A stretch of DNA of 64,000 nucleotides from an uncultured Actinomycetota bacterium (GCA_963753435.1 CAVWCF010000001.1:896001-960000), one strand, 5' to 3'. Shown: positions 13,541 to 29,185, counted from the stretch's first letter. The notes: generated by a model from the letters alone, not told the origin. Numbers and translations are program-made.

Positions 13541-13642
13541 GGCAAGCCTCCTCCGACCCCCTAAAGAATCATCGTTTCACGACTGGCGCACCCCCGCCGG
13601 GCATCTGCGCCGACGCGCCAGCGGTCCAGGTACCGTGATCGT

Positions 13643-14152
13643 GTGACCAGCGCGCCCGCTAAGCGACATCCAGTCGCCTCCACCGAACAAGCGCGCTCAG
13701 CACGGTCGGCGTGGCGATCGCGTGCGCTGCCGGCTGCCAGCGCAGCATTGGCGACGATGCTGCTGGCTACCGGTTGTGCCGCCGCCGACAACGAAGCCGG
13801 CTCAACCACACAGCCCACAACCAGTTCCAGCCCGAACGAATCCTCGACCTCCTCCACGACGCCAAGCGGGGTACCCACCGACCTGGCCCGGCCGATCCGG
13901 ATCGATGTCGCCCAGTCCGGCGGGGTCGTGACTCCCCCGCCGTCGCGAGTCGAGGTGCCGCTGGGCTCGGCGGTTGTACTCCGCGTCGGCAGCGACGTTG
14001 CCGACCAGATTCACGTCCACGGCTACGAGTTGGAGCAGGACGTCGCGGCCGGGGGCACGACCACCTTCGAGTTCACCGCTGATCAGAGTGGCCTGTTCGA
14101 GGTGGAGACACACGAGACCGCGCTGCTGTTGCTACAGCTGCAGGTGGCTTGA
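13643..14152 (+). CDS. Putative lipoprotein with a cupredoxin-like His-motif domain
   Basis: Hydrophobic segment ending LLATGC (lipobox-like), Ser/Thr linker, beta domain with IHVHGY and GLFEVETH. TACCGT 6 nt before GTG. Confidence 0.8.
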   Translation: MTSAPAKRHPVASTEQARSARSAWRSRALPAASAALATMLLATGCAAADNEAGSTTQPTTSSSPNESSTSSTTPSGVPTDLARPIRIDVAQSGGVVTPPPSRVEVPLGSAVVLRVGSDVADQIHVHGYELEQDVAAGGTTTFEFTADQSGLFEVETHETALLLLQLQVA

Positions 14153-15471
14153 CCGCGGTGGCCCTGAGCGGTCTGGCCGCTCACGGAATCGCCGGTCGCC
14201 AGGACCTACCCATCCCGTTCTGGGCCGCGGTCCTGGGTTCGGCCGTTGCGCTGCTGGCGACCTTCGCGATTCTCGCCTTCGCCTGGCCAACTCCTCGGCT
14301 CAACGGCGATCGCGCCGGCACCGAGGTTCCAGCCTGGCTCGCCGGCACGCTGGACTCACCTGCCTGGAGGTGGGGCTGGCGGATTTTCGGCGCGCTGGTC
14401 GCCGCCTACGTCGGCATGGCGGCTCTCTTCGGTCCCGACGACGCCCTCAACCCGACCGCGGGATTCATCTACGTCATCTTCTGGGTGGGGATTCTCGCCG
14501 TCGCCAGCGCCGTTCTTGGCCCGATCTGGCCGGCGCTGAACCCGATCCGGACGCTGGCGATGCTGCTCGCCCGAATCCGCAACACCGCGACCGAGCGCCC
14601 GCTGCCATCTGGGTGGGGTATCCGACCGGCAGTCCTCGCGCTTGGGTCCTTCATCTGGCTGGAACTGGTCGCACCCGACCGGGGCACCCTGGGCGTGATC
14701 AATGCCTTCGTGGCGATGTACCTCGTGGCCATGCTGGTGGGCGTCGTCGTGTACGGCGTGCGGTGGCTGGATGCCGCGGATGGCTTCGAGAGCTACAGCC
14801 GACTGGTCGGCACCATGGCTGTGCTTGGCCGACGCGACGGCGTGCGAGTTTGGCGCGGCCCGCTGCGGGGACTCGATGCGATTCGCCCAGTGCCCGGCAT
14901 GGTCGCGTTCCTGGTTCTGCTAATCGGATCCACGCTCTACGACGGGCTGTCCAACTCCCCGCAGTGGGTCCGAATCGCCCAGTCCGGGACTTTGCCGCAG
15001 CCGGTCATCGGCACGATCGGGTTGATTGCCGCAACCGTCGCCATCGGGGCCGTCTACGCAGTCGCTGCTCGCGCCACTGGTCGTATCGGGGGCGCCGAGC
15101 CGAGCGCGATGCCGCTGCAATTCGCGCACTCCTTGATCCCCATCGCGCTGGGCTACGTGATCGCGCACTACTACTCACTACTGGTCATCGCCGGGCAACA
15201 GACCGTGCAGCGCCTGTCAGATCCGCTCGGCAACGGTTCGGACCTACTGGGAGTTGCCGACCGTGGCGTCGACCTGACCTGGGCCCAGCCGACCACGGTC
15301 GCCACAGTTCAGGTGTTGGCTGTCGTGGTGGGCCACATCATGGCGGGGCTGCTGGCACATGACCGCGCGGTACGGGTGCTTGCGGCCCGACCGGTGGCCG
15401 GGCAACTGCCGCTGCTGGGCGCCATGGTGCTCTTCACCGTCACGGCGTTGCTGTTGCTGTTCGCTGCCTGA
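14149..15471 (+). CDS. Polytopic membrane protein with His motifs, function unknown
   Basis: About 10 hydrophobic segments. AHG near the N-terminus, HSLIPIALGYVIAHY, GHIMAGLLAHD. TTGA overlap with the lipoprotein gene. Confidence 0.85.
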   Translation: MTAVALSGLAAHGIAGRQDLPIPFWAAVLGSAVALLATFAILAFAWPTPRLNGDRAGTEVPAWLAGTLDSPAWRWGWRIFGALVAAYVGMAALFGPDDALNPTAGFIYVIFWVGILAVASAVLGPIWPALNPIRTLAMLLARIRNTATERPLPSGWGIRPAVLALGSFIWLELVAPDRGTLGVINAFVAMYLVAMLVGVVVYGVRWLDAADGFESYSRLVGTMAVLGRRDGVRVWRGPLRGLDAIRPVPGMVAFLVLLIGSTLYDGLSNSPQWVRIAQSGTLPQPVIGTIGLIAATVAIGAVYAVAARATGRIGGAEPSAMPLQFAHSLIPIALGYVIAHYYSLLVIAGQQTVQRLSDPLGNGSDLLGVADRGVDLTWAQPTTVATVQVLAVVVGHIMAGLLAHDRAVRVLAARPVAGQLPLLGAMVLFTVTALLLLFAA

Positions 15472-17964: not shown

Positions 17965-19164
17965 TCAGCCGGGCGCAGCCAGCCGCCAACCCCAACGGCG
18001 TGGCGCAGCAGTTGCACCTGTCAATCCGGCGCGGAGCGTTCGCAGGCTCTGGCGCATCGATGATCGCGGCGCCACCGAGGCCAGCGCCCGACCGGCCGCC
18101 AGCGCACGATCGACGGCCGCAATCTCATCGGGGACCTGCCAAGTCCGATCGGCGACGACCCCCGCCAGCGCCAACGCCTTGTTCAGTTCCCCGGCACGGA
18201 ATTCCTGCCGGCGCATCCGGTTCAGCAGCACGTGCAGTTCGGCGGTCGACTCCGTCGCCCGCAACTCCTGCACTGCGGTCACCAACCTCGCCAGCCCCAC
18301 CGGATCGGGCAGACCCACGACTAGCACCTGATCCGCGGCGGCCAACGCTGAAGCCCCAACACCCGGTTCTGCGACGTCGGCGGCACCGGCATCGACCACG
18401 ACGACGTCGGCGATCAAGCGCGCTACCGACCAAACCTGCTCCAGCGCCGTGGGTGGCGGTGGCGTTCGGATCGGACGCGCAGTCCCAGTGAGGATGCGCA
18501 ACCGATCGCTTACCTGCGGCGCCAACCGCGCCAGCGCCGGTAGGTCTAGCCCGGCCTGGTTGGCGGCTCGCGCAGCCGCCAACACCCCCGCGTGGTCATC
18601 CAGAACTCCGGCCATCTGCGCCAGCGAGCCGACTCGGTCGTCGGCGTCCACCAACAGAGTCGAGGAACCGGCAAGAGCCCACTCTGCGGCCAGATTCAGC
18701 GCCACGGTGCTTCGCCCCGGCGCACCTGGCGGCCCCCAGACGACGACCAGCCGGCCAGCGGAATCGACCGCCGTCGCGGATTCCGTTGGCAGGGCCGCGT
18801 CGACCACCGGCTCGCTGAGCACGGCTTCGGCCAAGGCCGTCAGGATCGCCTGAGCGTCGACCGCTCCACTGACCACAACGTCAACACGCCATTGCCGCAG
18901 GCGCCGCTCGGCTGCCTCGTCGCGGGCAACCCCGACGACTCGCATCCCATGCGCTCGCAGGTCGTCGATGACCCGGGCATCCAGGGCCCGGTGCTCGGCG
19001 GAGATAACGGCGACGTCGGCCGTCCCGGCGCGGGCGACGGCTCGGACCTCGGTCAGGTCCACGCAGCGGCGGACCAGGGTCCATTCCCCCCGCTCGGACA
19101 AAGCGGCGGCGACCTCGGCATCCAGGCTCCGGTCCGCCAGGGCGCAAACCACGCTCCCGGTCAC
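17965..19164 (-). CDS. CpaE/TadZ-like protein: pseudo-receiver + MinD/ParA-like ATPase
   Basis: Receiver-like N-terminus (ADVAVIS, no acceptor Asp), deviant Walker A GPPGAPGRST, LLVDAD, VVVVDAG, VLLNR. Confidence 0.85.
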   Translation of the reverse strand: MTGSVVCALADRSLDAEVAAALSERGEWTLVRRCVDLTEVRAVARAGTADVAVISAEHRALDARVIDDLRAHGMRVVGVARDEAAERRLRQWRVDVVVSGAVDAQAILTALAEAVLSEPVVDAALPTESATAVDSAGRLVVVWGPPGAPGRSTVALNLAAEWALAGSSTLLVDADDRVGSLAQMAGVLDDHAGVLAAARAANQAGLDLPALARLAPQVSDRLRILTGTARPIRTPPPPTALEQVWSVARLIADVVVVDAGAADVAEPGVGASALAAADQVLVVGLPDPVGLARLVTAVQELRATESTAELHVLLNRMRRQEFRAGELNKALALAGVVADRTWQVPDEIAAVDRALAAGRALASVAPRSSMRQSLRTLRAGLTGATAAPRRWGWRLAAPG

Positions 19165-19799
19165 GAAGCACCCGCTAGGCGCACGACATCGACGTCCCCG
19201 GTGCGAACCGCGCCGACGACCAGCCCGGCATCCGCCGCGTCCACCTCCACCACGACGGCCGTCTGGCCAGCCGCGAAACCAGCTTCGGCGACCACGTCCG
19301 AAACCACCGCCGCCGGCAGCACGAGCTCGGGGTCGGCACCTTCCGCAGACTGTGGCGTCACGTAGATGTCGACCTGCTCGCCCCGCCCCAGCCCCGGCGG
19401 TAGGTGCAGCGCATCCACGGGAAGGGTGACCAGCCGTTGGCTGACCGCGACTTGCGCCAGGGCGCGTACGGGCAGCAGCTCGCCGGTCGCGATCGGGACT
19501 GCCAGCGTCCGCCCGGCCGGCGATTCACCGGCGGTGCCCACGTAGCGGTCCACGCCGTCATCAAGTCGCACACCCACGAGGCGGATGTCCGCGGTGGTGA
19601 GCGTTGTCCCGGCGGGGAGATCCGCCGCGGCAGCCCACACCAGAACCGACTCGTCGGCGGCCGCCACTACCCGAGTACCGAGGACCACCGAACCGAGCAC
19701 CAGCAGCAGTCCGATCACCGCACGCGGATTCCCCCAGCGGGTTGCGGACACTCGATTGGCTCGCCTGGCGGGCAGGTCGGTGGGCGATGTTGGGGTCAT
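19161..19799 (-). CDS. SAF-domain, CpaB/RcpC-like membrane-anchored protein
   Basis: TM helix GLLLVLGSVVLG, SAF motif VWAAAADLPAGTTLTTADI...PIATGELL, RcpC-like LGRGEQVDIYVT. GTGA-coupled to the ATPase gene. Confidence 0.85.
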   Translation of the reverse strand: MTPTSPTDLPARRANRVSATRWGNPRAVIGLLLVLGSVVLGTRVVAAADESVLVWAAAADLPAGTTLTTADIRLVGVRLDDGVDRYVGTAGESPAGRTLAVPIATGELLPVRALAQVAVSQRLVTLPVDALHLPPGLGRGEQVDIYVTPQSAEGADPELVLPAAVVSDVVAEAGFAAGQTAVVVEVDAADAGLVVGAVRTGDVDVVRLAGAS

Positions 19800-19965
19800 G
19801 GTCACAAGGGCTCCCAGTGCGGCGGAACGGGCATGGTCCCCGAACGCGGCGAAAGCGCCGGAATGATTTCCACAGCCCACTCAACCGCGCGATCACACCT
19901 GTCACACTGGGGCAGTTGATCTCCGTAGGGGATCGGTTGATACCAGTTGGCTTGAGGGAGTTGAG

Positions 19966-20181
19966 TTGGCACCGCGATTCCTCACCTTGACCGACGTGGC
20001 CGAGATGCTGAACATCTCCTCGGCCCAGACCTATGCGTTGGTACGCAGCGGCGACTTGCCGGCGATCAAGGTGGGCGGGCGCGGTCAGTGGCGGGTTGAG
20101 GCGGCGGTCCTGGAGGAGTACATCCAGCGGCTGTACGCGCAGACAAGAGAGCAGGTAGGGCGCGGTCTCGTCGAGGACTGA
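19966..20181 (+). CDS. Small Xis/BldC-like winged-HTH DNA-binding protein (71 aa)
   Basis: FLTLTDVAEMLNIS..TYALVRSGDLPAIKVGGRGQWRV. GAGGGAG SD before TTG. Confidence 0.9.
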   Translation: MAPRFLTLTDVAEMLNISSAQTYALVRSGDLPAIKVGGRGQWRVEAAVLEEYIQRLYAQTREQVGRGLVED

Positions 20182-20216
20182 ACTCTGCCGGCAGGCGGGC
20201 GCTCGCCCGAGTCGGA

Positions 20217-20741
20217 CTAGCGCCAGGAGAGCAAGGCCAGATTGGCGGTCGGGAAGCAGAGCAGCTCCGGATCGGATCCCCGCTGCAAATCCACGGTGTC
20301 GGCGCCGACTGAGGTGATTCGGCCCCGAATCCGGGTTCCGTCAACCAACGCCAGGGCGATCTCGCCGCCGTCCACGAGCCTGCGCAGCACCGCCGTGAGC
20401 CCATAGCCGGCGGCGACTGCCGACTCCAGCGCAGGATCCCGAGCCCCTTCGCCCAGCCCGGTCACCTGAGTGACGGCAGCCAGCACGACCAGAGCCTCCA
20501 CGGTGTCGGCACCGCGCAGCAGGCACCAGTCGGGGCCGACATCGACCACGGTCCCGCGGGCCCAGTCGGCCCCGGTCACGCGCATGCCGACCTCATCCCC
20601 CACCGCAGCGGCCAGCCGATCAACAAGGCGGATGCGTGACCGCTCCGCCACCAGGCGCTCCGCGATCTCGCCCTCGTTCTCGGCGACCTGCTCGCGGTCC
20701 CAGCTGTCCGCCAGGTCTGCAGCGACTTCTTCCCAACGCAT
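20217..20741 (-). CDS. Conserved hypothetical protein (174 aa) with two Sm/Hfq-like repeats
   Basis: Start re-assigned to ATG 20741 (MRWEEVAADL), 7 nt after TACGGT. Internal repeats RGTVVDVGPD / RGRITSVGAD. The fold is inferred. Confidence 0.82.
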   Translation of the reverse strand: MRWEEVAADLADSWDREQVAENEGEIAERLVAERSRIRLVDRLAAAVGDEVGMRVTGADWARGTVVDVGPDWCLLRGADTVEALVVLAAVTQVTGLGEGARDPALESAVAAGYGLTAVLRRLVDGGEIALALVDGTRIRGRITSVGADTVDLQRGSDPELLCFPTANLALLSWR

Positions 20742-20777
20742 GCGGTCAACCGTATCCCGGGTATCCACAAGCGGGCC

Positions 20778-20806
20778 TTGACCGCACCAAAACGCGCGCT
20801 TATGGT
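20778..20806 (+). promoter_or_regulatory. Housekeeping-type promoter of the lysM-Rv3235 operon
   Basis: TTGACC (20778-83)-N17-TATGGT (20801-06), followed by a GAGG SD and GTG 20844. Confidence 0.75.
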
Positions 20807-20843
20807 CCGAGCCACAGCAAACGACATCAAACAGAGGTAAATC

Positions 20844-21458
20844 GTGCCAATAACCGTTGACGCAGTCGCCGCACCGCTCGCGTCCGCCGCTTTCTGCTTC
20901 GCCGCCGGCTGGATCGGCCTCGCGCTGACGGCCAGGTTGCTGGGTCGCCTGCCCGGGGTTGTGGGGACCCTGGCCCGTCGAATCGCGGACAGCGTTACCC
21001 CGAGGTTCGTGCGCACCGCGATAGCCGCAGTCGTCGGTCTTGGGCTGGGCGCGGGTCCCGCCACTGCCGCCGAAGACCCGCTGCCACGGTTGGACCGCGT
21101 ATCCAGCGGCCAACAGTTGGGGGTTACCCCAAGCGCCTACCCACCGGCGACGCCACCGGCGACTTCGGCGGCCGACCCAGCCGCCACTGCCGCGGCTGAC
21201 CCAACCTCTCCCGCTGCCGACCCAACCTCGCGCACGGCTGCAGCGTCCGTCGACGCAGCGCCGGTGCCCTACGTGGTGAAGCGCGGCGACACGCTGTGGG
21301 CGATCGCGGCCAAGCACCTGCCCCCGACCGCCACAGCGGCGGATGTCGACCGAACGTGGCGGCAATGGTGGCTGGCGAATCGCACAGTGATCGGCGCCAA
21401 TCCGAACCTGATCCGTCCCGGACAGGAACTGGCGCAACCGGAAAGTGCGGCTCGGTGA
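20844..21458 (+). CDS. Membrane-anchored LysM domain protein
   Basis: Hydrophobic N-terminal segments, Ala/Pro/Thr linker (AADP x4), YVVKRGDTLWAIA...WWLANRTVIGANPNLIRPGQEL. Confidence 0.9.
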   Translation: MPITVDAVAAPLASAAFCFAAGWIGLALTARLLGRLPGVVGTLARRIADSVTPRFVRTAIAAVVGLGLGAGPATAAEDPLPRLDRVSSGQQLGVTPSAYPPATPPATSAADPAATAAADPTSPAADPTSRTAAASVDAAPVPYVVKRGDTLWAIAAKHLPPTATAADVDRTWRQWWLANRTVIGANPNLIRPGQELAQPESAAR

Positions 21459-22072
21459 TGAACGAGACAGCGACTTCGAACGTCAATTCCGTCGTGAACG
21501 ACGAGTCAACAACTGCGGGTGCTGCGGCCGTGCACCGCGGACCTCGGCTGCGCTTGGTGCCCAAGCTGGAATCGATCCCCGTCCCGTCCGGGGCAGTCGC
21601 CGACGCCCCGTCGACCCCGGCGCCGCCAGCGTTGACGGGCGCGGCCCCGGTCCAGGGAACGCTGGCCCTGGCCTTCGAATTGCCCAGCGGGGTGCCCGCG
21701 GCTCCGGAACCCCCTGACCTTCAGGTCCTGGGGTCCGCTACCGACGACGAATTGCGGAATTGGGCCGGCATGCTCGGGGTCGCCCTCATCGAGGTCGTCG
21801 CAGGCCTCCGGCCGCTGCGCCAGGTCGCCGGCTGGACGACGCACCGGGTCGGTCAGCAACTCAGCAGGCACCTGCGGTCAGCGCCCACCGCTCGACGAAA
21901 CAGCGGGGATCGCGGCAGAGCACGATTGCGCTCGGTCCATGTGACGCTGGTCAGCCCCGAGGCGGCAGAGGCAACGGTCGTCGTAGCTCAGGACAGCCGG
22001 GTGCGTGCCGCGGCACTTCGCCTACAACGGCGGCACGGCAAGTGGGTATGCGCCGCGTTCGTGGTCGCATAA
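21458..22072 (+). CDS. Rv3235 family protein
   Basis: QGTLALAF, EVVAGLRPLRQV..W, EATVVV...RVRAAALRL...W.C. TGATG overlap with lysM. Convergent with secA. Confidence 0.85.
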   Translation: MNETATSNVNSVVNDESTTAGAAAVHRGPRLRLVPKLESIPVPSGAVADAPSTPAPPALTGAAPVQGTLALAFELPSGVPAAPEPPDLQVLGSATDDELRNWAGMLGVALIEVVAGLRPLRQVAGWTTHRVGQQLSRHLRSAPTARRNSGDRGRARLRSVHVTLVSPEAAEATVVVAQDSRVRAAALRLQRRHGKWVCAAFVVA

Positions 22073-22106: not shown

Positions 22107-24938
22107 CTACCGGCGGCGCTTCTTGTTCGCCCGTTCGGCGCGGCGCCGCTCAGCCCTGGACGCATTCGGATCGACGACCACGGGTTCACCCGCGTCGGCA
22201 CCGACGTCACCACCGGTGCGCACCACGTCACCGGTCTCCCCCGGCGCTGAGTACTGCACCTGCTTGGGGCCGCCGGCCTGCAAGCCCTTCGCGGTCACCA
22301 GCGGCTTCTGGCCACCGGCCAGCGCCGCGATGACGGACTGCGCGTCCGAGCCACTGAGCGGACCTGCCCCGCCACGGCCGCCAGAGACATCCGGAAGTGC
22401 GCCTTGCGGGGTCACCTGGGCCGCCGCGGCGGCGTTGGGGTCGTTCACCTGGACTTCGACGTTGAACAGGAGCCCGACCGACTCCTCCTTGACCGAGTCC
22501 ATCATCGCCGCGAAGAGTTCATAGCCCTCGCGCGTGTACTCCACCAATGGATTGCGCTGAGCCATCGCCCGCAGGCCGATGCCCTCCTTGAGGTAGTCCA
22601 TCTCATAAAGGTGCTCGCGCCACTTGCGGTCCACGACGGACAGGACCACGCGCCGCTCGAGTTCGCGCATTGCCTCCGAACCGAGATCCTCCTCGCGGCG
22701 GTCATACGCGCTGTGAGCGTCTTCCAGCAGGCGCTCCAACAAGAAGTCGCCCGTCAAGCCGTTGACGTCGCCGCCAGCCTCCTCGACTACTTCCTCCAGC
22801 GACGGCCCAACCGGGTACAGCGTCCCGAGCGCGGTCCACAACTGCTCCAGGTCCCACTCCTCCGGGAAGCCTTCGGCAGTTGCCGAGGTGACGTAGTCGG
22901 TGATCGTGTCGTCGACCATTCCGCGGATCTGCTCGACTAGATCCTCACCGTTCAGGACCCGCTGCCGCTCCGCGTAGACCACCTTGCGCTGGGTGTTCAT
23001 CACGTCGTCGTACTTGAGCACGTTCTTGCGGATCTCGAAGTTCTGCCGCTCCACCTGCGTCTGTGCGCTGGCGATCGCGTTCGAAACCATCTTGGCCTCG
23101 ATGGGCACGTCGTCGGGAATGTCGAACGTGGTCAGCACGCGGTCGACAACGCCAGACTTGAACAGCCGCATCAGGTCGTCTTCCAGCGACAGGTAGAAGC
23201 GGGACTCACCCGGGTCCCCCTGGCGGCCGGACCGCCCCCGCAACTGGTTGTCGATGCGACGGCTCTCGTGGCGCTCCGTCCCGAGCACGTAGAGCCCGCC
23301 CAGGTCCACGACCTCTTCGTGTTCACGCTTCACGGATTCCTCGGCCTTGTGCAAGGCATCCGGCCACGCCGCCTCGTACTCCTCTGGCGACTCCGAAGGT
23401 GTCAGCCCGCGCTGCTCCAGTTCGGCCGACGCCATGAACTCCGGGTTGCCGCCGAGCATGATGTCGGTACCGCGACCGGCCATGTTCGTCGCAACCGTGA
23501 CCGCGCCTTTGCGGCCGGCCTGGGCAACCACATGCGCCTCTCGCGCGTGCTGCTTGGCGTTGAGAACCTCGTGTGGCACGCCGCGCTTGCGCAGCGCCTG
23601 GGACAACAGTTCCGACTTCTCCACGCTCACCGTGCCGACCAGAACCGGCTGCCCCGCCTCGTGGCGATCCACCAGATCGTCGACGACCGCGTTGAACTTG
23701 GCCTCCTCCGTGCGGTAGATCAGGTCGGCCTCGTCCGCGCGTGCCATCGGCCGGTTGGTCGGGATCGGCACCACTCCGAGGCCGTAGATCTGGGAGAACT
23801 CAGCTGCCTCCGTCATCGCGGTGCCGGTCATTCCGCCCAACTTGGAGTACAGGCGGAAGTAGTTCTGCAGCGTGATCGTGGCCAGCGTCTGGTTCTCCTG
23901 CTTGATCTGGACGCCTTCTTTGGCCTCGATGGCCTGGTGCATGCCCTCGTTGTAGCGGCGGCCCGCAAGGATGCGACCGGTGTGCTCGTCGACGATCAGG
24001 ACCTCGCCGTCCATGATCACGTAGTCCCGGTCCAGCCGGTACAACTCCTTGGCCTTGAGTGCGTTGTTCAGGTAGCCAACGAGATTCGTGTGCGCTGACT
24101 CGTACAGGTTCTCCATGCCGAGGTGGTCCTCCACCTTGGCCACCCCGGATTCCAGCACCCCGACGGTGCGCTTCTTCTCGTCCACCTCGTAGTCCTCGTC
24201 GCGGCGCAGGCGCGTCGCGATTCGCGCGAACTCCGTGTACCACTGCTGGCTCTCCTCCACCGGTCCGCTGATGATCAGCGGCGTGCGGGCCTCATCGATG
24301 AGGATGGAGTCGACCTCGTCGATGACCGCGAAGTTGTGGCCCCGCTGCACCAAGTCATTCGGGGACCAAGCCATGTTGTCCCGCAGATAGTCGAAGCCGA
24401 ACTCGTTGTTCGTCCCGTAGGTGATGTCCGCGTCGTAGGCCACGCGTCGTTCGGCCGGTGACATCTGCGACAGGATCACGCCGACTTCGAGGCCGAGGAA
24501 GCGGTGGACCCGACCCATCCACTCAGAGTCGCGCTTGGCGAGGTAGTCGTTAACGGTGACGATGTGGACACCGTCACCGGAGATCGCGTTCAGATAGGCG
24601 GGGAGGGTGGATACCAGCGTCTTACCCTCACCGGTCCGCATCTCAGCGATGTTGCCTAGGTGCAACGCGGCGCCACCTTGGATCTGAACGTCGTAGTGGC
24701 GCTGACCCAAGGTCCGCTTGGCCGCCTCGCGGACGGTGGCGAATGCCTCCGGCATCAAGTCGTCAAGGGACTCCCCGTCGGCGTAGCGCTGCCTGTACTC
24801 GTCGGTGAGCGCACGGAGCTCGGCATCCGTCAGGTCGACAAAGTCCTCCTCGATGGAGTTGACCTGGGCTGAGATCCGCGCCAGCTGCTTGAGGATCTTG
24901 CCTTCGCCGGCACGCAGGATCCGATCGAGGATGGACAC
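22107..24938 (-). CDS. secA: Preprotein translocase ATPase SecA
   Basis: [61 protein letters not shown]. Confidence 0.99.
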
Positions 24939-25677: not shown

Positions 25678-26892
25678 ATGAGTACACGCCGCAGGAGTAG
25701 CGGGCAGGCGGGGGCGCAACCGGACGCCGAAACCGCGGAATTGTCCAGCGCCGAAGCTCGCCGGATCGCGCTGCGCGCCCAGGGCCTGCTCGGCACGCGC
25801 ATCACCGGCGGCCCGTTGGGGGTTCTGCGGCGAGTCGGCGCGGTGCAACTGGACACGATCAGCGTGTTGGCCCGCAGCCATGAACTGATCCCCTATGCCC
25901 GGCTCGGACCCGTCGGAGCGCGCCGGGTCGAGCGGGCCTTCTGGTCCGGGGGCACCCCGCGAACGTTTGAGTACTGGGCCCACGCCGCCTGCATCCTCCC
26001 CATCGAGGACTGGCCGCTGTTCGCCTTCCGCCGCCAGCAGTTCCGCGAACGGGGCAAGCGCTGGCATGACGTCCCCACGACCGCCGTCGCACAGGTCAAG
26101 CAACGGCTGCGTGATGAGGGCCCGCTGATGACCCGCGACCTCGGCGGCGGGCGACGCGGTGGGCCTTGGTGGGACTGGTCCGACGTCAAGGTCGCCGTCG
26201 AATGGCTGCTGGACATCGGCGAAGTCACCGTCGCCAGGCGAGTCGGCTTCCAGCGCGTCTACGACCTCGCCGAGCGGGTAGTCCCGAACGAACTGCTCGG
26301 CCGCGAATTGGGCGAGTCCGAGTGCATTCCGCAGCTCGTGACGCGCGCCGGTCGCGCCATGGGCGTGGCCACTGTGAGCGATCTGGCCGACTACTACCGC
26401 CTGACCAGTGATCAGGTACGCCAGGCCCTGCCGGCAACGGATCTGGTGCCGGTTCGGGTTGAGGGCTGGCGCGGCCACGCCTTTGCCGATCCAAGCGGCC
26501 TGGAACAGCTCGGGGCTCGAGCCAGGACCCGGCCGACCCTGCTGTCGCCATTCGACTCGCTCATCTGGGACCGCCGCCGGACGGCTCGGCTGTTCGACTT
26601 CGCCCACCGTTTGGAGGCATACGTCCCAGCTCCCAAGCGGGTCCACGGCTACTACGCCATGCCGGTCCTGGCCGGAGACCGGCTGGTAGGTCGTGTCGAC
26701 CCGGTCCGCGAGGGCTCGATCCTGCACGCGCGCCGCGTCAGCATCGACGAACCTGAGGCGATCCCGGCGGTGGCCAAGGCGATAGCCACAGCCGCCGACT
26801 GGGTGGGGTGCGAGTCGGTACTGATCGGGCGGGTGACACCGCAAGAACACGAGGCCGCGTTGACCGCGGCCGCCGACGTCAGGCGATGCTGA
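25678..26892 (+). CDS. YcaQ/AlkZ-like (HTH_42) crosslink-repair DNA glycosylase
   Basis: ARRIALRAQG, QxD motif VQLDTISVLARSH, EYWAHAA, LLSPFDSLIWDR, EAYVP..KR.HGYY. Start approximate. Confidence 0.9.
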   Translation: MSTRRRSSGQAGAQPDAETAELSSAEARRIALRAQGLLGTRITGGPLGVLRRVGAVQLDTISVLARSHELIPYARLGPVGARRVERAFWSGGTPRTFEYWAHAACILPIEDWPLFAFRRQQFRERGKRWHDVPTTAVAQVKQRLRDEGPLMTRDLGGGRRGGPWWDWSDVKVAVEWLLDIGEVTVARRVGFQRVYDLAERVVPNELLGRELGESECIPQLVTRAGRAMGVATVSDLADYYRLTSDQVRQALPATDLVPVRVEGWRGHAFADPSGLEQLGARARTRPTLLSPFDSLIWDRRRTARLFDFAHRLEAYVPAPKRVHGYYAMPVLAGDRLVGRVDPVREGSILHARRVSIDEPEAIPAVAKAIATAADWVGCESVLIGRVTPQEHEAALTAAADVRRC

Positions 26893-27526
26893 CCAGGCCC
26901 TGGCGCACCCCGTGTGCCACTGCCCCAGTCCGCGAACGGGTCCCGGTCTTCTCCAGGATCCGGCGGACATGGTTCTTGACGGTGTTCTCGCTGATGAACA
27001 GCCGATCGGCGATGTCCCGGTTGCTGGCACCGGCCGCGATCAGGCGCAACACCTCCAACTCGCGTTCCGTCAGAGGTTCGGCGCTCGGGTCGTCGCGCAC
27101 CAGCGCCTGCAGCAGCTGCTCGGTCAGCGGGGGGCTCACGTGCACGGAACCGTCGGCGACGGCACGCACCCCAGCCGCGATCTCACCGATCGGCGCGTCG
27201 CGCAGCAGGTATCCCGCAGCGCCGGAACGCAACGCCAACGTGACCGACTGGGAGTCCGCCGACTCGGCCAGCAGCACGATGTGGGCCGGCGCCACGGCTT
27301 CCTGCCAGTTGCCCCATTGCGCCGACCCGGGCACACACATCCGCGCGGGCAGCAGGACCACGTCCGGGGTCAGACGGCGAACCACGCCGCGGGCGTCATC
27401 AAGGTCGGCCGCAACCGCGACGCTGGGCTCACCGAGGACCTCAGCCAGGGCCAACGCAGTGCCACGGCGATCCAGTTCGCGGTCGTCGACGACGAGCACC
27501 CAGCCGCTACGTCGCCTGCGCACCAC
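26879..27526 (-). CDS. Orphan NarL/LuxR-family response regulator with a degenerate receiver
   Basis: VLVVDD receiver plus LTERELEVL...SNRDIADRLFISENTVKNHV HTH. The acceptor position reads DVVLLP. Confidence 0.88.
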   Translation of the reverse strand: MVRRRRSGWVLVVDDRELDRRGTALALAEVLGEPSVAVAADLDDARGVVRRLTPDVVLLPARMCVPGSAQWGNWQEAVAPAHIVLLAESADSQSVTLALRSGAAGYLLRDAPIGEIAAGVRAVADGSVHVSPPLTEQLLQALVRDDPSAEPLTERELEVLRLIAAGASNRDIADRLFISENTVKNHVRRILEKTGTRSRTGAVAHGVRQGLVSIA

Positions 27527-27586
27527 CGGACCCCACCTCCCGGCGACATCCTGGCACCGTCGTCAGCGGCGCGAGGCCGCTTCAAC

Positions 27587-28210
27587 TCAGGCGTCGGTCA
27601 CGTTGAGGTGGATGACCCCGTAGTCGTAGCCGCGGCGCCGGTAGACCACGCTCGGCCGCCCACTTTCCTTGTCGGCGTAGAGGAAGAAGTCATGGCCGAC
27701 GAGTTCCATCTCGTACAGCGCCTGGTCCAACGTCATCGGCATGGCGTCGTGCTCCTTCTCCCGCACGACCATGGGCCCGTCCGCTGCGATCGTCGTGGCC
27801 GCACCGGGCTCGGCGACCTCGAAAGCGGTGTCCGGCTGGACCGGCGGGGTCGCCGAAACCAGCGATGCGTCGGCTTCGGCCACGATGCGCCGGGCATCGC
27901 GGCGGCGATGGTCCGCACGCCGATCGGCCCACCGACGCAACCGACCTTCCAGCTTGTCCATGGCCGCGTCCAGAGCAGCGTGCTTCTCCTCGGCGGAGGC
28001 TTCGGCGCGAATCACCGGGCCGCGACCGCGGCAAGTGAGTTCGACACGGTATGCGCGCTCGGCAAGGCGGGGGTTGGACTCCTTGGAGACCTCTACGTCG
28101 ACGCGCTGCAACTTCGGGTCGTACCGCTCCAACTTGTCGAGTTTCTCGCTTACGACCTCACGGAACTTGTCGGACACCTCCAGGTGCCGACCACTGACAA
28201 CGACGTCCAT
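27587..28210 (-). CDS. hpf: Long ribosome hibernation promoting factor
   Basis: MDVVVSGRH...VREKEH..PMTLDQALYEMELVGHDFFLY...VVYRR.GYDYG. GAGGAGG SD before ATG 28210. Confidence 0.95.
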   Translation of the reverse strand: MDVVVSGRHLEVSDKFREVVSEKLDKLERYDPKLQRVDVEVSKESNPRLAERAYRVELTCRGRGPVIRAEASAEEKHAALDAAMDKLEGRLRRWADRRADHRRRDARRIVAEADASLVSATPPVQPDTAFEVAEPGAATTIAADGPMVVREKEHDAMPMTLDQALYEMELVGHDFFLYADKESGRPSVVYRRRGYDYGVIHLNVTDA

Positions 28211-28227
28211 GTCCGCCTCCTCACCAA

Positions 28228-28303
28228 CGGCCGTGGCAAGCCCGGCCGAAACCAAGCGACCACACGGATCCGTCTCGTCTTGCGAACCGGACACGCGCGG
28301 TCG
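28228..28303 (-). promoter_or_regulatory. Structured 5' leader of hpf (two hairpins)
   Basis: 10-bp stem 28303-28294/28266-28257 (two G-U pairs) with inner stems, plus a CGGCCG hairpin at 28248-28228. TAGCGT -10 at 28320-28315. Confidence 0.45.
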
Positions 28304-28317
28304 TCACAGTTGAGACG

Positions 28318-29085
28318 CTAGTCCAGACCGACCCGGCGCGACACCCGACCATGGTCCTGACTGGGTTGCTCCCCTACGGGAATCACCTGCTGCCGGGCAA
28401 CAGCGTCGCGCGGATGGGTGATGCTGACGACGGCGTCCACGTTCCAGCCCGCGGCTCTGGCAGCACGGGCCGCTTCCAGCGCCGTGGAACCGGTGGTGAC
28501 AACGTCATCGACTAGGACCGCGCGGCCGGCACCGCTCGGAGCGCGGGCGCGCAGCGCGCCGTGAACATTGCCCCGCCGATCTGCGGCCCGGAGCCGACTC
28601 TGATCCGGTCCGCCGCGTACCCACTGCAGCGCCAGCGACACCTGCACCCGGATACCCGCGGCGCTGAGGAGCGCCGCAGCACCGAGGGCCAGTTGGACCA
28701 CTGGGTCCTGGGGCCGGCGCAGTCGATTTCGAGGCCGCTGCGGGATCGGGAGCAGCGTCACCGCATCACCCTGGGCGCGATCACACTGGGCCCGATCACA
28801 CTGGGCCCGATCACACTGGGCCCGATCGGAGAGCAGAACCTGGGCCAGCGGTCTGGCCAACGCAGCAGATAACAGCGGGGTCAGGGCGCGCGCCCCGGAC
28901 TCCTTGAGCGCGACGACCATTCGCGAGGCCGGCGGCTCATGTGGCGCAGCCCAGGCGCGCAGCAGCCCGTCGCGGCGTTGCACCTCGACTTCGCAGGCAG
29001 CCATCGCCGCGGCGCAGTCGGCGCATAAGGGTCCGGCCCGCAGTTGGCAGCCCAGACAAGTCGGCTGCAGCAGCGCGTTCCACAC
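28318..29085 (-). CDS. comF: ComF family phosphoribosyltransferase-like protein
   Basis: N-terminal CLGC..CADC, PRPP loop VLVDDVVTTGST. Canonical position between lpqB and hpf. Confidence 0.88.
   Translation of the reverse strand: MWNALLQPTCLGCQLRAGPLCADCAAAMAACEVEVQRRDGLLRAWAAPHEPPASRMVVALKESGARALTPLLSAALARPLAQVLLSDRAQCDRAQCDRAQCDRAQGDAVTLLPIPQRPRNRLRRPQDPVVQLALGAAALLSAAGIRVQVSLALQWVRGGPDQSRLRAADRRGNVHGALRARAPSGAGRAVLVDDVVTTGSTALEAARAARAAGWNVDAVVSITHPRDAVARQQVIPVGEQPSQDHGRVSRRVGLD
28765..28827. repeat. 15-bp tandem repeat, about 4 copies, inside comF
   Basis: ctggg(c/g)ccgatcaca-type units at 28771, 28786, 28801 and partial 28816. Encodes (DRAQC)3-DRAQG. Confidence 0.95.
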
Positions 29086-29185
29086 CCCGAAACGGTCCCC
29101 GGCAACTGAGGGCCGCGCCCGTGGGTTGCGACCCCGGTGGACAGCTCATGGCTGTGATCGGCTGTGTACGGCCCCGATGCGGGCC

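Follow-up and report, generated by a model that had tools for sequence, protein, structure and literature searches.

The window analysed here is a stretch of 64,000 nucleotides (nt) (GCA_963753435.1 CAVWCF010000001.1:896001-960000, or G000:C1:896001-960000 in our numbering) from an uncultured Actinomycetota bacterium, whose metagenome-assembled genome from sediment comprises 2.17 Mb at 68% G+C in six contigs; the stretch is also present in sediment metagenome runs, with no RNA run listed among its carriers. Between the genes for a major facilitator superfamily (MFS) exporter and SecA it carries six open reading frames (ORFs), which a first-pass annotation had picked out as a module: a MinD-like ATPase and a SAF-domain membrane protein facing away from a helix-turn-helix (HTH) protein, and a tandem Sm-like protein facing away from a LysM protein and a DUF6459 (Rv3235 family) protein. 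ORF and family scans confirmed all six genes, their orientation and their arrangement as two divergons (Table 1). The stop codon of the SAF gene overlaps the start of the ATPase gene by 4 nt (GTGA), and that of the LysM gene overlaps the ATG of the DUF6459 gene (TGATG), which is read as translationally coupled in the window. The SAF ORF opens at 19880, with the ATG at 19799 favoured as the start by the family alignment (A3). Consistent with the first-pass annotation, which saw no tadA, tadB/C, flp or integrase gene in the window, family scans for T2SSE, T2SSF, Flp and tyrosine-integrase gave zero matches within the 64 kb.

Table 1. Features of the module, its surroundings and the partner locus. 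Positions are counted from the first nucleotide of the window unless a contig is given.
Feature	Position	Strand	Basis or remark
MinD/ParA-like ATPase (TadZ/CpaE-like, two-domain)	17965-19164	-	399 aa
SAF-domain RcpC/CpaB-like bitopic membrane protein	19161-19799	-	PF08666 match
Divergent SAF/HTH spacer	19800-19965	.	sequence
HTH_17 protein	19966-20181	+	71 aa; HTH_17 5e-14
Tandem Sm-like protein	20217-20747	-	176 aa, no family match
DnaA-box-like site GCTTGTGGATACCC	20759-20772	-	exact 8-mer; position weight matrix (PWM) rank 10 genome-wide
Promoter-like site of LysM gene, TTGACC-17-TATGGT	20778-20806		sequence
LysM protein	20844-21458	+	LysM 6e-7
DUF6459 (Rv3235 family)	21458-22072	+	4e-26; ORF opens at 21296
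secA	22107-24938	-
ComF-like gene	28321-29145	-	ComF/GntX models 32-42 bits, far below cut-offs
C2 tad locus: tadA, tadB, tadC, TadE/G-like gene	C2:6857-11466		gene scans

The ATPase and the SAF protein resemble Tad pilus components

Sequence matches of the ATPase, to CbiA/AAA_31 and to ParA/BcsQ/Ssd, are weak and every one falls below its cut-off: it scores 16.4 bits on Pfam CbiA (cut-off 25.4) and 16.8 bits on TIGR03815, CpaE_hom_Actino/Ssd (cut-off 154.45), with weak NCBIfam matches to Ssd and MinD. The family itself is large, with 1237 proteins at E<=0.001 among 7995 candidates scored. The predicted structure (predicted local distance difference test, pLDDT, 83) has a receiver-like five-strand alpha/beta N-domain at about residues 1-116 followed by a MinD/ParA fold, the strands and helices running from 3 to 116 and then from 138 to 381. 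This is the two-domain arrangement of TadZ, an atypical receiver joined to a MinD/ParA fold. A Foldseek search with the model returned 3ea0 at 7e-12 and 3fkq at 1.2e-9, the latter over 396 columns with both domains aligned; 3fkq is the E. rectale TadZ, which has an atypical receiver and a MinD/ParA domain (PMC13170226). MinD/Soj/FlhG structures and FleN-FleQ complexes were further structural neighbours.

The Walker A motif of the window protein is GPPGAPGRST, in which both lysines are absent; the lysine or lysines of the TadZ Walker A, associated with ATP-dependent dimerisation, are therefore not found here. The first-pass annotation had drawn attention to the arginine at the Walker A lysine (GAPGRST), and this residue proves to be a hallmark of the family: it is present in all 20 aligned homologues (alignment A1) and in 84 of 85 loci, and the family motif reads G-P-x-G-A/S-P-G-R-S/T-T. 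The 'signature' lysine is retained in some families (GPKGAPGR), proline taking its place in the window (GPPGAPGR). The Walker A' and B aspartates, D173, D175 and D258, are invariant in A1. With arginine replacing the P-loop lysine and these aspartates kept, the protein is predicted from its sequence to bind nucleotide with little or no hydrolysis. The receiver had also been described as having no acceptor aspartate. This is true of the window protein, where Glu57 follows strand 3 at a position judged equivalent to the acceptor from the strands of the model, not from superposition, but the statement is limited to that protein because 19 of 20 homologues carry Asp or Glu there. At the A1 positions after strands 1, 4 and 5 no conserved D-D, T/S or K is seen, and these further active-site positions of a receiver are thus not conserved in the family. 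As a separate observation, the window protein and a relative 84% identical to it have lost about 12 residues around 259-268, in the loop after the Walker B strand; the affected segment is otherwise conserved as GFxLEDDEELSYDTxAPRRNG, and the deletion is lineage-specific.

The SAF protein is composed of a basic cytoplasmic tail, a transmembrane (TM) helix and an outer SAF domain (PF08666, 22.4-22.7 bits, cut-off 21). In A3 R16 and W22 of the tail and G30 of the TM helix are invariant and V34 is near-invariant; the conserved tail motif is R-x5-W-x-D-x-R. CpaB is an inner-membrane-anchored alignment part (PMC13170226), and the window protein shares with RcpC/CpaB both the layout, an N-terminal TM helix and then a SAF domain, and the placing of its gene directly upstream of a TadZ-like gene. 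In contrast to RcpC/CpaB it matches SAF alone (22.7 bits) without an RcpC match, and it belongs to a monoderm, which has no secretin for docking. The relative at locus L099, on the other hand, passes the Pfam cut-off for RcpC (PF16976, 39.3 bits, cut-off 28.8) and scores 55 bits on TIGR03177 cpaB, below the cut-off of 71. Among 24 family members, 17 match SAF and 4 match RcpC (PF16976, E<=0.01). Prediction of a complex between the ATPase (A1) and the cytoplasmic tail of the SAF protein (residues 1-34 of A3) scored 0.25 against a mark of 0.32, which is no evidence either way. Taken together, the Tad likeness that the first-pass annotation had assigned to this pair is sustained.

A probable TadA partner lies elsewhere in the genome

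In five loci of three other families (L099-L103), which have no secA nearby, the genes are ordered LysM - X - HTH / (SAF) - ATPase - TadA - TadB - TadC, the SAF gene being found by tblastn in 4/5. X is a protein of 181 aa that shows the barrel motif of the Sm-like protein and is likely its counterpart; comparison of the Sm-like profile (A2) with the L099 protein gave a weak match over one barrel (probability 44%, E 2.4e-4). The LysM gene lies 1.1-1.6 kb from the HTH gene in all five. The best homologue of this type of TadA in the source genome, at 60% identity, is on contig C2, within a tad locus (Table 1) that has AurF-like and IMPase genes upstream and, after the TadE-like gene, prfB downstream; a scan of this locus found neither RcpC nor CpaE.

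The distribution of these genes was followed in a single fixed set of 301 genomes from the phylum, which includes genomes flagged as unpublished (G125, G006, G053, G093), with no claim resting on those alone. Scores with the C2 TadA were bimodal, 34 genomes reaching at least 393 bits (55-75% identity) and the next best 276 bits. Of these 34 genomes, 33 are ATPase-positive, and in 27 of the 33 holding both genes the start of tadA follows the ATPase gene by no more than about 250 nt, both being read in the same direction. The two are apart in the other six, the source genome among them. On this distribution the separate state appears to be derived, a single tad locus having been split. The pair is thus an orphan within the window, as the first-pass annotation had it, but not in the genome, where a partner of the right TadA clade is present on C2. 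A place next to tadA/cpaF, typical of TadZ, is likewise missing in the window and seen in the 27 genomes and in 5/5 fetched loci of other families; CpaE dimers form a ring around CpaF (PMC13170226).

The likeness to TadZ/CpaE proteins, of which E. rectale TadZ and Caulobacter CpaE are examples, lies in the alignment with 3fkq over both domains and in the position of the relatives' gene between an rcpC/cpaB-like gene and tadA, whereas the arginine P-loop, the curated scores far below cut-off and the detachment from tadA set the window protein apart. Similarly, M. tuberculosis Ssd (TIGR03815) is a MinD-like protein that heads an actinobacterial tad locus, but the Flp locus in that species, Rv3654c-Rv3660c, is of another type, and the window ATPase reaches only the 16.8 bits given above on the Ssd model.

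Besides the C2 genes, two more tad loci are present in the source genome, along with a locus for a type IVa pilus. The tad locus at C1:1-7636 encodes RcpC (72 bits), a canonical CpaE with the Walker A sequence KGGSGKTT, TadA and TadB/C; the one at C1:1279-1282 kb has a DUF4244 pilin beside a MrfA-type helicase and presumably resembles M. tuberculosis Rv3654c-Rv3660c in content. The genes comEC and dprA are also present. Two Flp-pilin matches at C2:178586-178945 lie near the contig end and the C1:1-7636 locus starts C1, so these contigs may adjoin.

Conservation and distribution of the module in the phylum

Eighty named loci, chosen by their ATPase (598 pattern matches, 574 confirmed relatives), were compared; they come from Dermatophilaceae, Cellulomonas, Modestobacter, Frankia, Jiangellales, Actinopolymorpha and others. 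With neighbours detected by tblastn at 1e-4, and several loci cut short by contig ends, the SAF gene was found in 79, HTH in 78, Sm-like in 75, LysM in 70, SecA in 68 and DUF6459 in 55. A single order and orientation, secA - DUF6459 - LysM - Sm-like - HTH / SAF - ATPase, runs through the 80 loci, a conservation of arrangement far beyond chance. Downstream of the ATPase in the secA-linked lineage are WS/DGAT, DUF6912 and NAD-GDH genes, not tad genes (Pfam, 27 ORFs, seven loci). The ATPase family is single-copy in the 5/5 genomes checked, including two of Cellulomonas and one of Modestobacter. Two local peculiarities were seen: in Cellulomonas loci L052, L055, L060 and L061 there is 2-5 kb of extra DNA between the Sm-like and LysM genes, which are adjacent in other loci, and in Modestobacter (L037:13413-18164) the region about 2 kb past the downstream end of the ATPase gene encodes an FtsK/SpoIIIE protein of 1584 aa that carries an FHA domain. 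The parallel with the FtsK/SpoIIIE gene next to tad-1 in M. luteus (below) may be coincidence.

In the 301-genome sample the ATPase family is present in 36 genomes and an HTH ortholog in 38, with 32 in common. The Sm-like gene is found in 22, 20 of them with the ATPase, and the two exceptions are assemblies 87-88% complete in 780-900 contigs. The ATPase was found in 0/8 genomes of family f3 and 0/8 of family f4 (the latter Mycobacterium-like), both large-genome families that retain secA-DUF6459. DUF6459 behaves differently: 64 of the 301 genomes have it, 21 with the ATPase and 43 without the ATPase, HTH or Sm-like gene, and it occurs in 8/8, 8/8 and 12/12 genomes of three families that have no other module genes. 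In three such loci secA and DUF6459 stand without LysM, HTH, SAF or ATPase. On account of this profile and these loci, DUF6459 goes with secA and is a neighbour of the module, not a member. The proposal that all six genes co-occur as a unit is accordingly upheld for the core, the Sm-like gene and the LysM gene but not for DUF6459. The DUF6459 protein of the window passes its Pfam model clearly (91.8 bits, cut-off 27); a literature search on DUF6459 found no paper, and one on Rv3235 gave nothing relevant in titles and the opening parts of abstracts of the papers listed.

The LysM and tandem Sm-like genes, in contrast, travel with the core and represent undescribed accessory parts. The LysM protein is membrane-anchored, has a linker rich in Ala and Pro and, at its C-terminus, a LysM domain (residues 143-196, 29.7 bits, cut-off 20.9), and is likely a peptidoglycan anchor. 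The 176-aa Sm-like protein has no Pfam family and no Sm/Hfq sequence match in the family scans, and its nearest Atlas clusters are unannotated and actinobacterial. Its model (pLDDT 92) shows a 45-residue N-terminal helix and two small barrels (strands 52-96 and 130-175), for which the top Foldseek match was 2x4j at 3.9e-4 and Hfq chains were matched with probability 1.0 and TM-target 0.57-0.71. The 'double Sm-like' description given from sequence is hence correct at the level of the fold, the class being put as SH3-like barrel because KOW and Tudor barrels likewise match.

The HTH protein and a DnaA-box-like element

The 71-aa HTH protein passes curated models of excisionase type (PF12728, 52.6 bits, cut-off 27; TIGR01764, 37.6 bits, cut-off 28.8) and is likely a regulator. 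It is the best conserved member of the module, with 21 invariant columns in alignment A4, 52-73% identity across orders and a mean column identity of 62%, compared with 37-49% for the neighbouring families. It had been called BldC-like; BldC is a small MerR/Xis-like developmental regulator of Streptomyces with a single-domain Xis-type HTH. A relation to BldC is not borne out by the sequence. The sole match of the A4 profile among all chains of the PDB was phage Xis Gp37 (4j2n) at E 0.11, with no BldC chain even at E 10, and an ortholog at E 1e-12 was found in 0/8 genomes of the Streptomyces-like family f3. That the protein might be the excisionase of a mobile element was rejected, the two tyrosine recombinases of the genome being at C1:209 kb and C1:624 kb and the gene context being conserved in 80 loci. 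A -10-like word upstream of the HTH gene, G[GT]C[AC][CGA]ACT, was dropped (21/79 regions against 6/79 on the opposite strand).

Another signal in these upstream regions is the 8-mer TGTGGAYA, extended to cCTGTGGACAAC, the reverse complement of TTGTCCACA, which we take to be the actinobacterial DnaA box. The exact 8-mer is present in 40 of the 79 regions upstream of HTH. Its density is 1.95 per kb in the HTH/SAF spacers of 39 loci, 0.20 in the LysM/Sm-like spacers and 0.016 in the rest of the loci, an enrichment of about 120-fold in the HTH/SAF spacer of relatives. The HTH/SAF spacer of the window has a one-mismatch copy only, TTTCCACAG at 19867-19875, and the exact word GCTTGTGGATACCC is located 12 nt upstream of the Sm-like start, just before the -35 element of the LysM promoter-like site. 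Over the genome as a whole there is no enrichment of the word (46 copies against about 56 expected), and the best sites are at dnaA-dnaN (oriC), behind crgA and ahead of a small RcpC-like gene next to mscL. TGTGGAYA is regarded as a candidate cis element that may be read by DnaA or by the HTH protein. It is absent from the 5/5 tadA-adjacent loci examined.

Some of the high-scoring sites have surroundings of their own. The RcpC-like gene beside mscL (G000:C5:23949-24768; L111:2449-3268) is a second small gene of this kind, coding for 157 aa with 32.9 bits on PF16976; a top-scoring DnaA-box-like site, C5:24446, lies between it and a divergent 115-aa ORF without a family, an arrangement that echoes the SAF/HTH divergon. 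The two best sites outside oriC, C5:198969 and C5:199014 (L108:2970 and 3015), are separated by 45 nt and fall between the genes for a DUF5679 protein and a YgjP-like metallopeptidase.

A locus of this kind affects competence in Micrococcus luteus

The first-pass annotation knew of no functional description of such clusters. One exists: 'cluster 13' of M. luteus, in which Mlut_14660 (HTH_17) is divergent from Mlut_14650 (SAF, RcpC/CpaB-like) - Mlut_14640 (CpaE/TadZ-like) - Mlut_14630, affects comEA/EC expression and transformation (Torasso Kasem et al. 2021, PMC8467076), and by analogy the earlier guess at a competence role agrees with this work. Almost every mutant in which the comEA/EC promoter was de-repressed had a change in a 550-bp stretch comprising the HTH_17 gene, its 5' untranslated region and the part of the SAF gene that encodes the TM region. 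Deletion of the SAF gene raised com promoter activity further than the point mutations did and lowered transformation about 10^4-fold, the G27D substitution in the SAF protein lowered it more than 10^5-fold, and the HTH gene could not be deleted. In competence medium the operon ranked with the most strongly expressed genes, and the same arrangement was reported in Geodermatophilus, Rothia, Jonesia and Cellulomonas. The authors favour transcriptional interference between overlapping divergent promoters; a competence phenotype was likewise seen for an FtsK/SpoIIIE gene next to tad-1 (all PMC8467076). Both tad clusters of M. luteus are required for Flp pili and transformation, and tad-1 has the gene order tadA-B-C-tadE/F-G (PMC4322843), the same as that of the C2 locus. 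A literature search by Mlut locus tags returned PMC8467076 only, and PMC12849477 does not mention the locus under the terms searched.

Cluster 13 and the window share three domain architectures and the same divergent arrangement of HTH_17 against SAF - CpaE-like. The mutated TM residues G27 and V31 are spaced as G30 and V34 of the family, and in Cellulomonas and Geodermatophilus, where its arrangement was also reported, the fetched loci hold the single-copy family. The spacing of S27, S46 and R64 in the M. luteus HTH protein is compatible with two different registers of the HTH family and decides nothing. In contrast to the window, where the Sm-like gene is next to HTH, cluster 13 has a PAS histidine kinase there; in its accessible portions, the text of the paper leaves LysM, Sm-like and secA neighbours unmentioned and neither links the locus to tad-1 nor notes the arginine P-loop. 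We infer that cluster 13 and tad-1 may be two pieces of one ancestral locus.

Role of the module and alternative readings

The observed gene content, folds, co-occurrence and adjacency in relatives suggest that HTH / SAF-ATPase is probably the detached front end of one Tad (Flp) pilus locus of the tad-1 type, likely working with the tadABC-tadE-like genes on C2. For the source organism this carries inferences about protein contacts, nucleotide state, HTH targets and a link to transformation. The SAF protein would be the membrane-seated alignment part of the pilus machine, of RcpC/CpaB type, and the two-domain MinD-like protein a scaffold of TadZ/CpaE type around the TadA motor. The LysM protein may tether the machine to peptidoglycan, which a monoderm has in place of a secretin, with the tandem Sm-like protein as a putative cytoplasmic accessory. 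The divergent Xis-type HTH protein might control its own divergon and, if M. luteus is a guide, competence genes, in which case the output would likely be a DNA-uptake pilus.

Several observations weigh against this picture. Both the ATPase (16.8 against 154 bits) and the SAF protein (no RcpC match) remain under curated cut-offs, and the 36 ATPase-positive genomes include two weak matches (G165, G273) without the TadA clade. In the source genome the box-like word was not found upstream of tad, comEC or dprA (exact 8-mers, annotated top PWM sites). The connection to M. luteus is made through architecture, a family that is single-copy in 5/5 genomes and the G27/V31 spacing. Finally, M. luteus without the SAF gene loses transformation but shows higher com promoter activity (PMC8467076), which points to a regulatory side of the locus that a purely structural role leaves unexplained.

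That regulatory side could be accounted for by a checkpoint in which the MinD-like protein lacking the lysine and its partner in the membrane monitor the pilus or envelope and accordingly retain or free the HTH protein, in the manner of FleN-FleQ, so that competence genes follow assembly. Such a control is compatible with a pilus front end. Consistent with it, mutations in the M. luteus SAF-TM region and HTH gene increase comEA/EC promoter activity, the SAF deletion doing so further although transformation is lost (PMC8467076); HTH and ATPase co-occur in 32/36 and 32/38 genomes, the HTH protein is conserved far above its neighbours, and the structural search with the ATPase model returned FleN-FleQ complexes. 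The M. luteus authors, however, favour transcriptional interference (PMC8467076), and adjacency to tadA fits a structural role equally well; as the full explanation it would seem unlikely. It is quite unlikely that the genes form a module for the cell cycle or the division site with no relation to pili, in which the MinD-like protein positions an envelope component under DnaA and the HTH protein, a positioning role of the kind that has been proposed for Ssd. The weak NCBIfam matches to Ssd and MinD would fit this, as would the roughly 120-fold enrichment of TGTGGAYA in the relatives' spacer, the box before the window Sm-like gene, the clustering of the same word at dnaA-dnaN and the failure to delete the HTH gene in M. 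luteus (PMC8467076). The conserved place beside secA in 68/80 loci, and the proximity to mtrAB-lpqB and crgA-type genes, would then reflect an envelope or division role. Against this, the family tracks one TadA clade (33/34) and is adjacent to it in 27/33 genomes, secA is not near it in the loci of other families, the family was not found in the 8/8 f3 and 8/8 f4 genomes that keep secA-DUF6459, and the box is missing from all five tadA-adjacent loci.

The genes might also stand beside secA simply because this region is rarely rearranged in Actinomycetota, as is suggested by the 43 genomes with DUF6459 and without the ATPase, in which DUF6459 is still beside secA, and by the downstream WS/DGAT, DUF6912 and NAD-GDH genes, syntenic in several loci and the window. 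Ancestral synteny alone does not explain why HTH, SAF, ATPase, LysM and a protein of similar size and motif to the Sm-like one are together in 5/5 loci without secA nearby, why the presence and absence of HTH, ATPase and Sm-like genes track each other across the 301 genomes, or the 4-nt overlap of SAF and ATPase. The profiles refute it for the five-gene core, and it stands for DUF6459; as an account of the module it is very unlikely.

Neighbouring genes

The wider surroundings on the secA side, with mtrA, mtrB, lpqB and the ComF-like gene, are a familiar actinobacterial setting, and the WS/DGAT, DUF6912 and NAD-GDH genes lie on the other side. The statement that comF is about 6 kb away is right as to a gene with ComF/GntX matches at that place, but the 32-42 bits are far below the cut-offs. 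Elsewhere in the window, at 13565-15468 and 26864-28318, three ORFs of 195, 462 and 485 aa have a coding-like codon bias and are without a Pfam or NCBIfam match.

Implications

It was already known that a locus of this kind is tied to competence in M. luteus (PMC8467076). What is new here is two undescribed co-inherited parts, the LysM anchor and the tandem Sm-like protein, a lysine-to-arginine change in the P-loop throughout the family, and a candidate cis element. The profiles tie a locus that affects competence to one TadA clade, resembling M. luteus tad-1 in gene order, at a point where the control of competence in high-GC Gram-positive bacteria is largely unknown and the need of M. luteus for two tad clusters unexplained. 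The removal of Rv3235/DUF6459 from the module spares wasted effort in mycobacteria, and a natural 'locked' MinD-like scaffold, together with a concrete list of partners, makes the system testable. It is conceivable, if improbable, that the lysine-less TadZ-like, RcpC-like and Sm-like proteins together act as an assembly checkpoint, reporting the state of the pilus and, via DnaA boxes, of replication to an essential Xis-type regulator, with cluster 13 and tad-1 as the halves of one locus. Were this so, DNA uptake in Actinomycetota would be licensed only after completion of the machine and at times permitted by the cell cycle.

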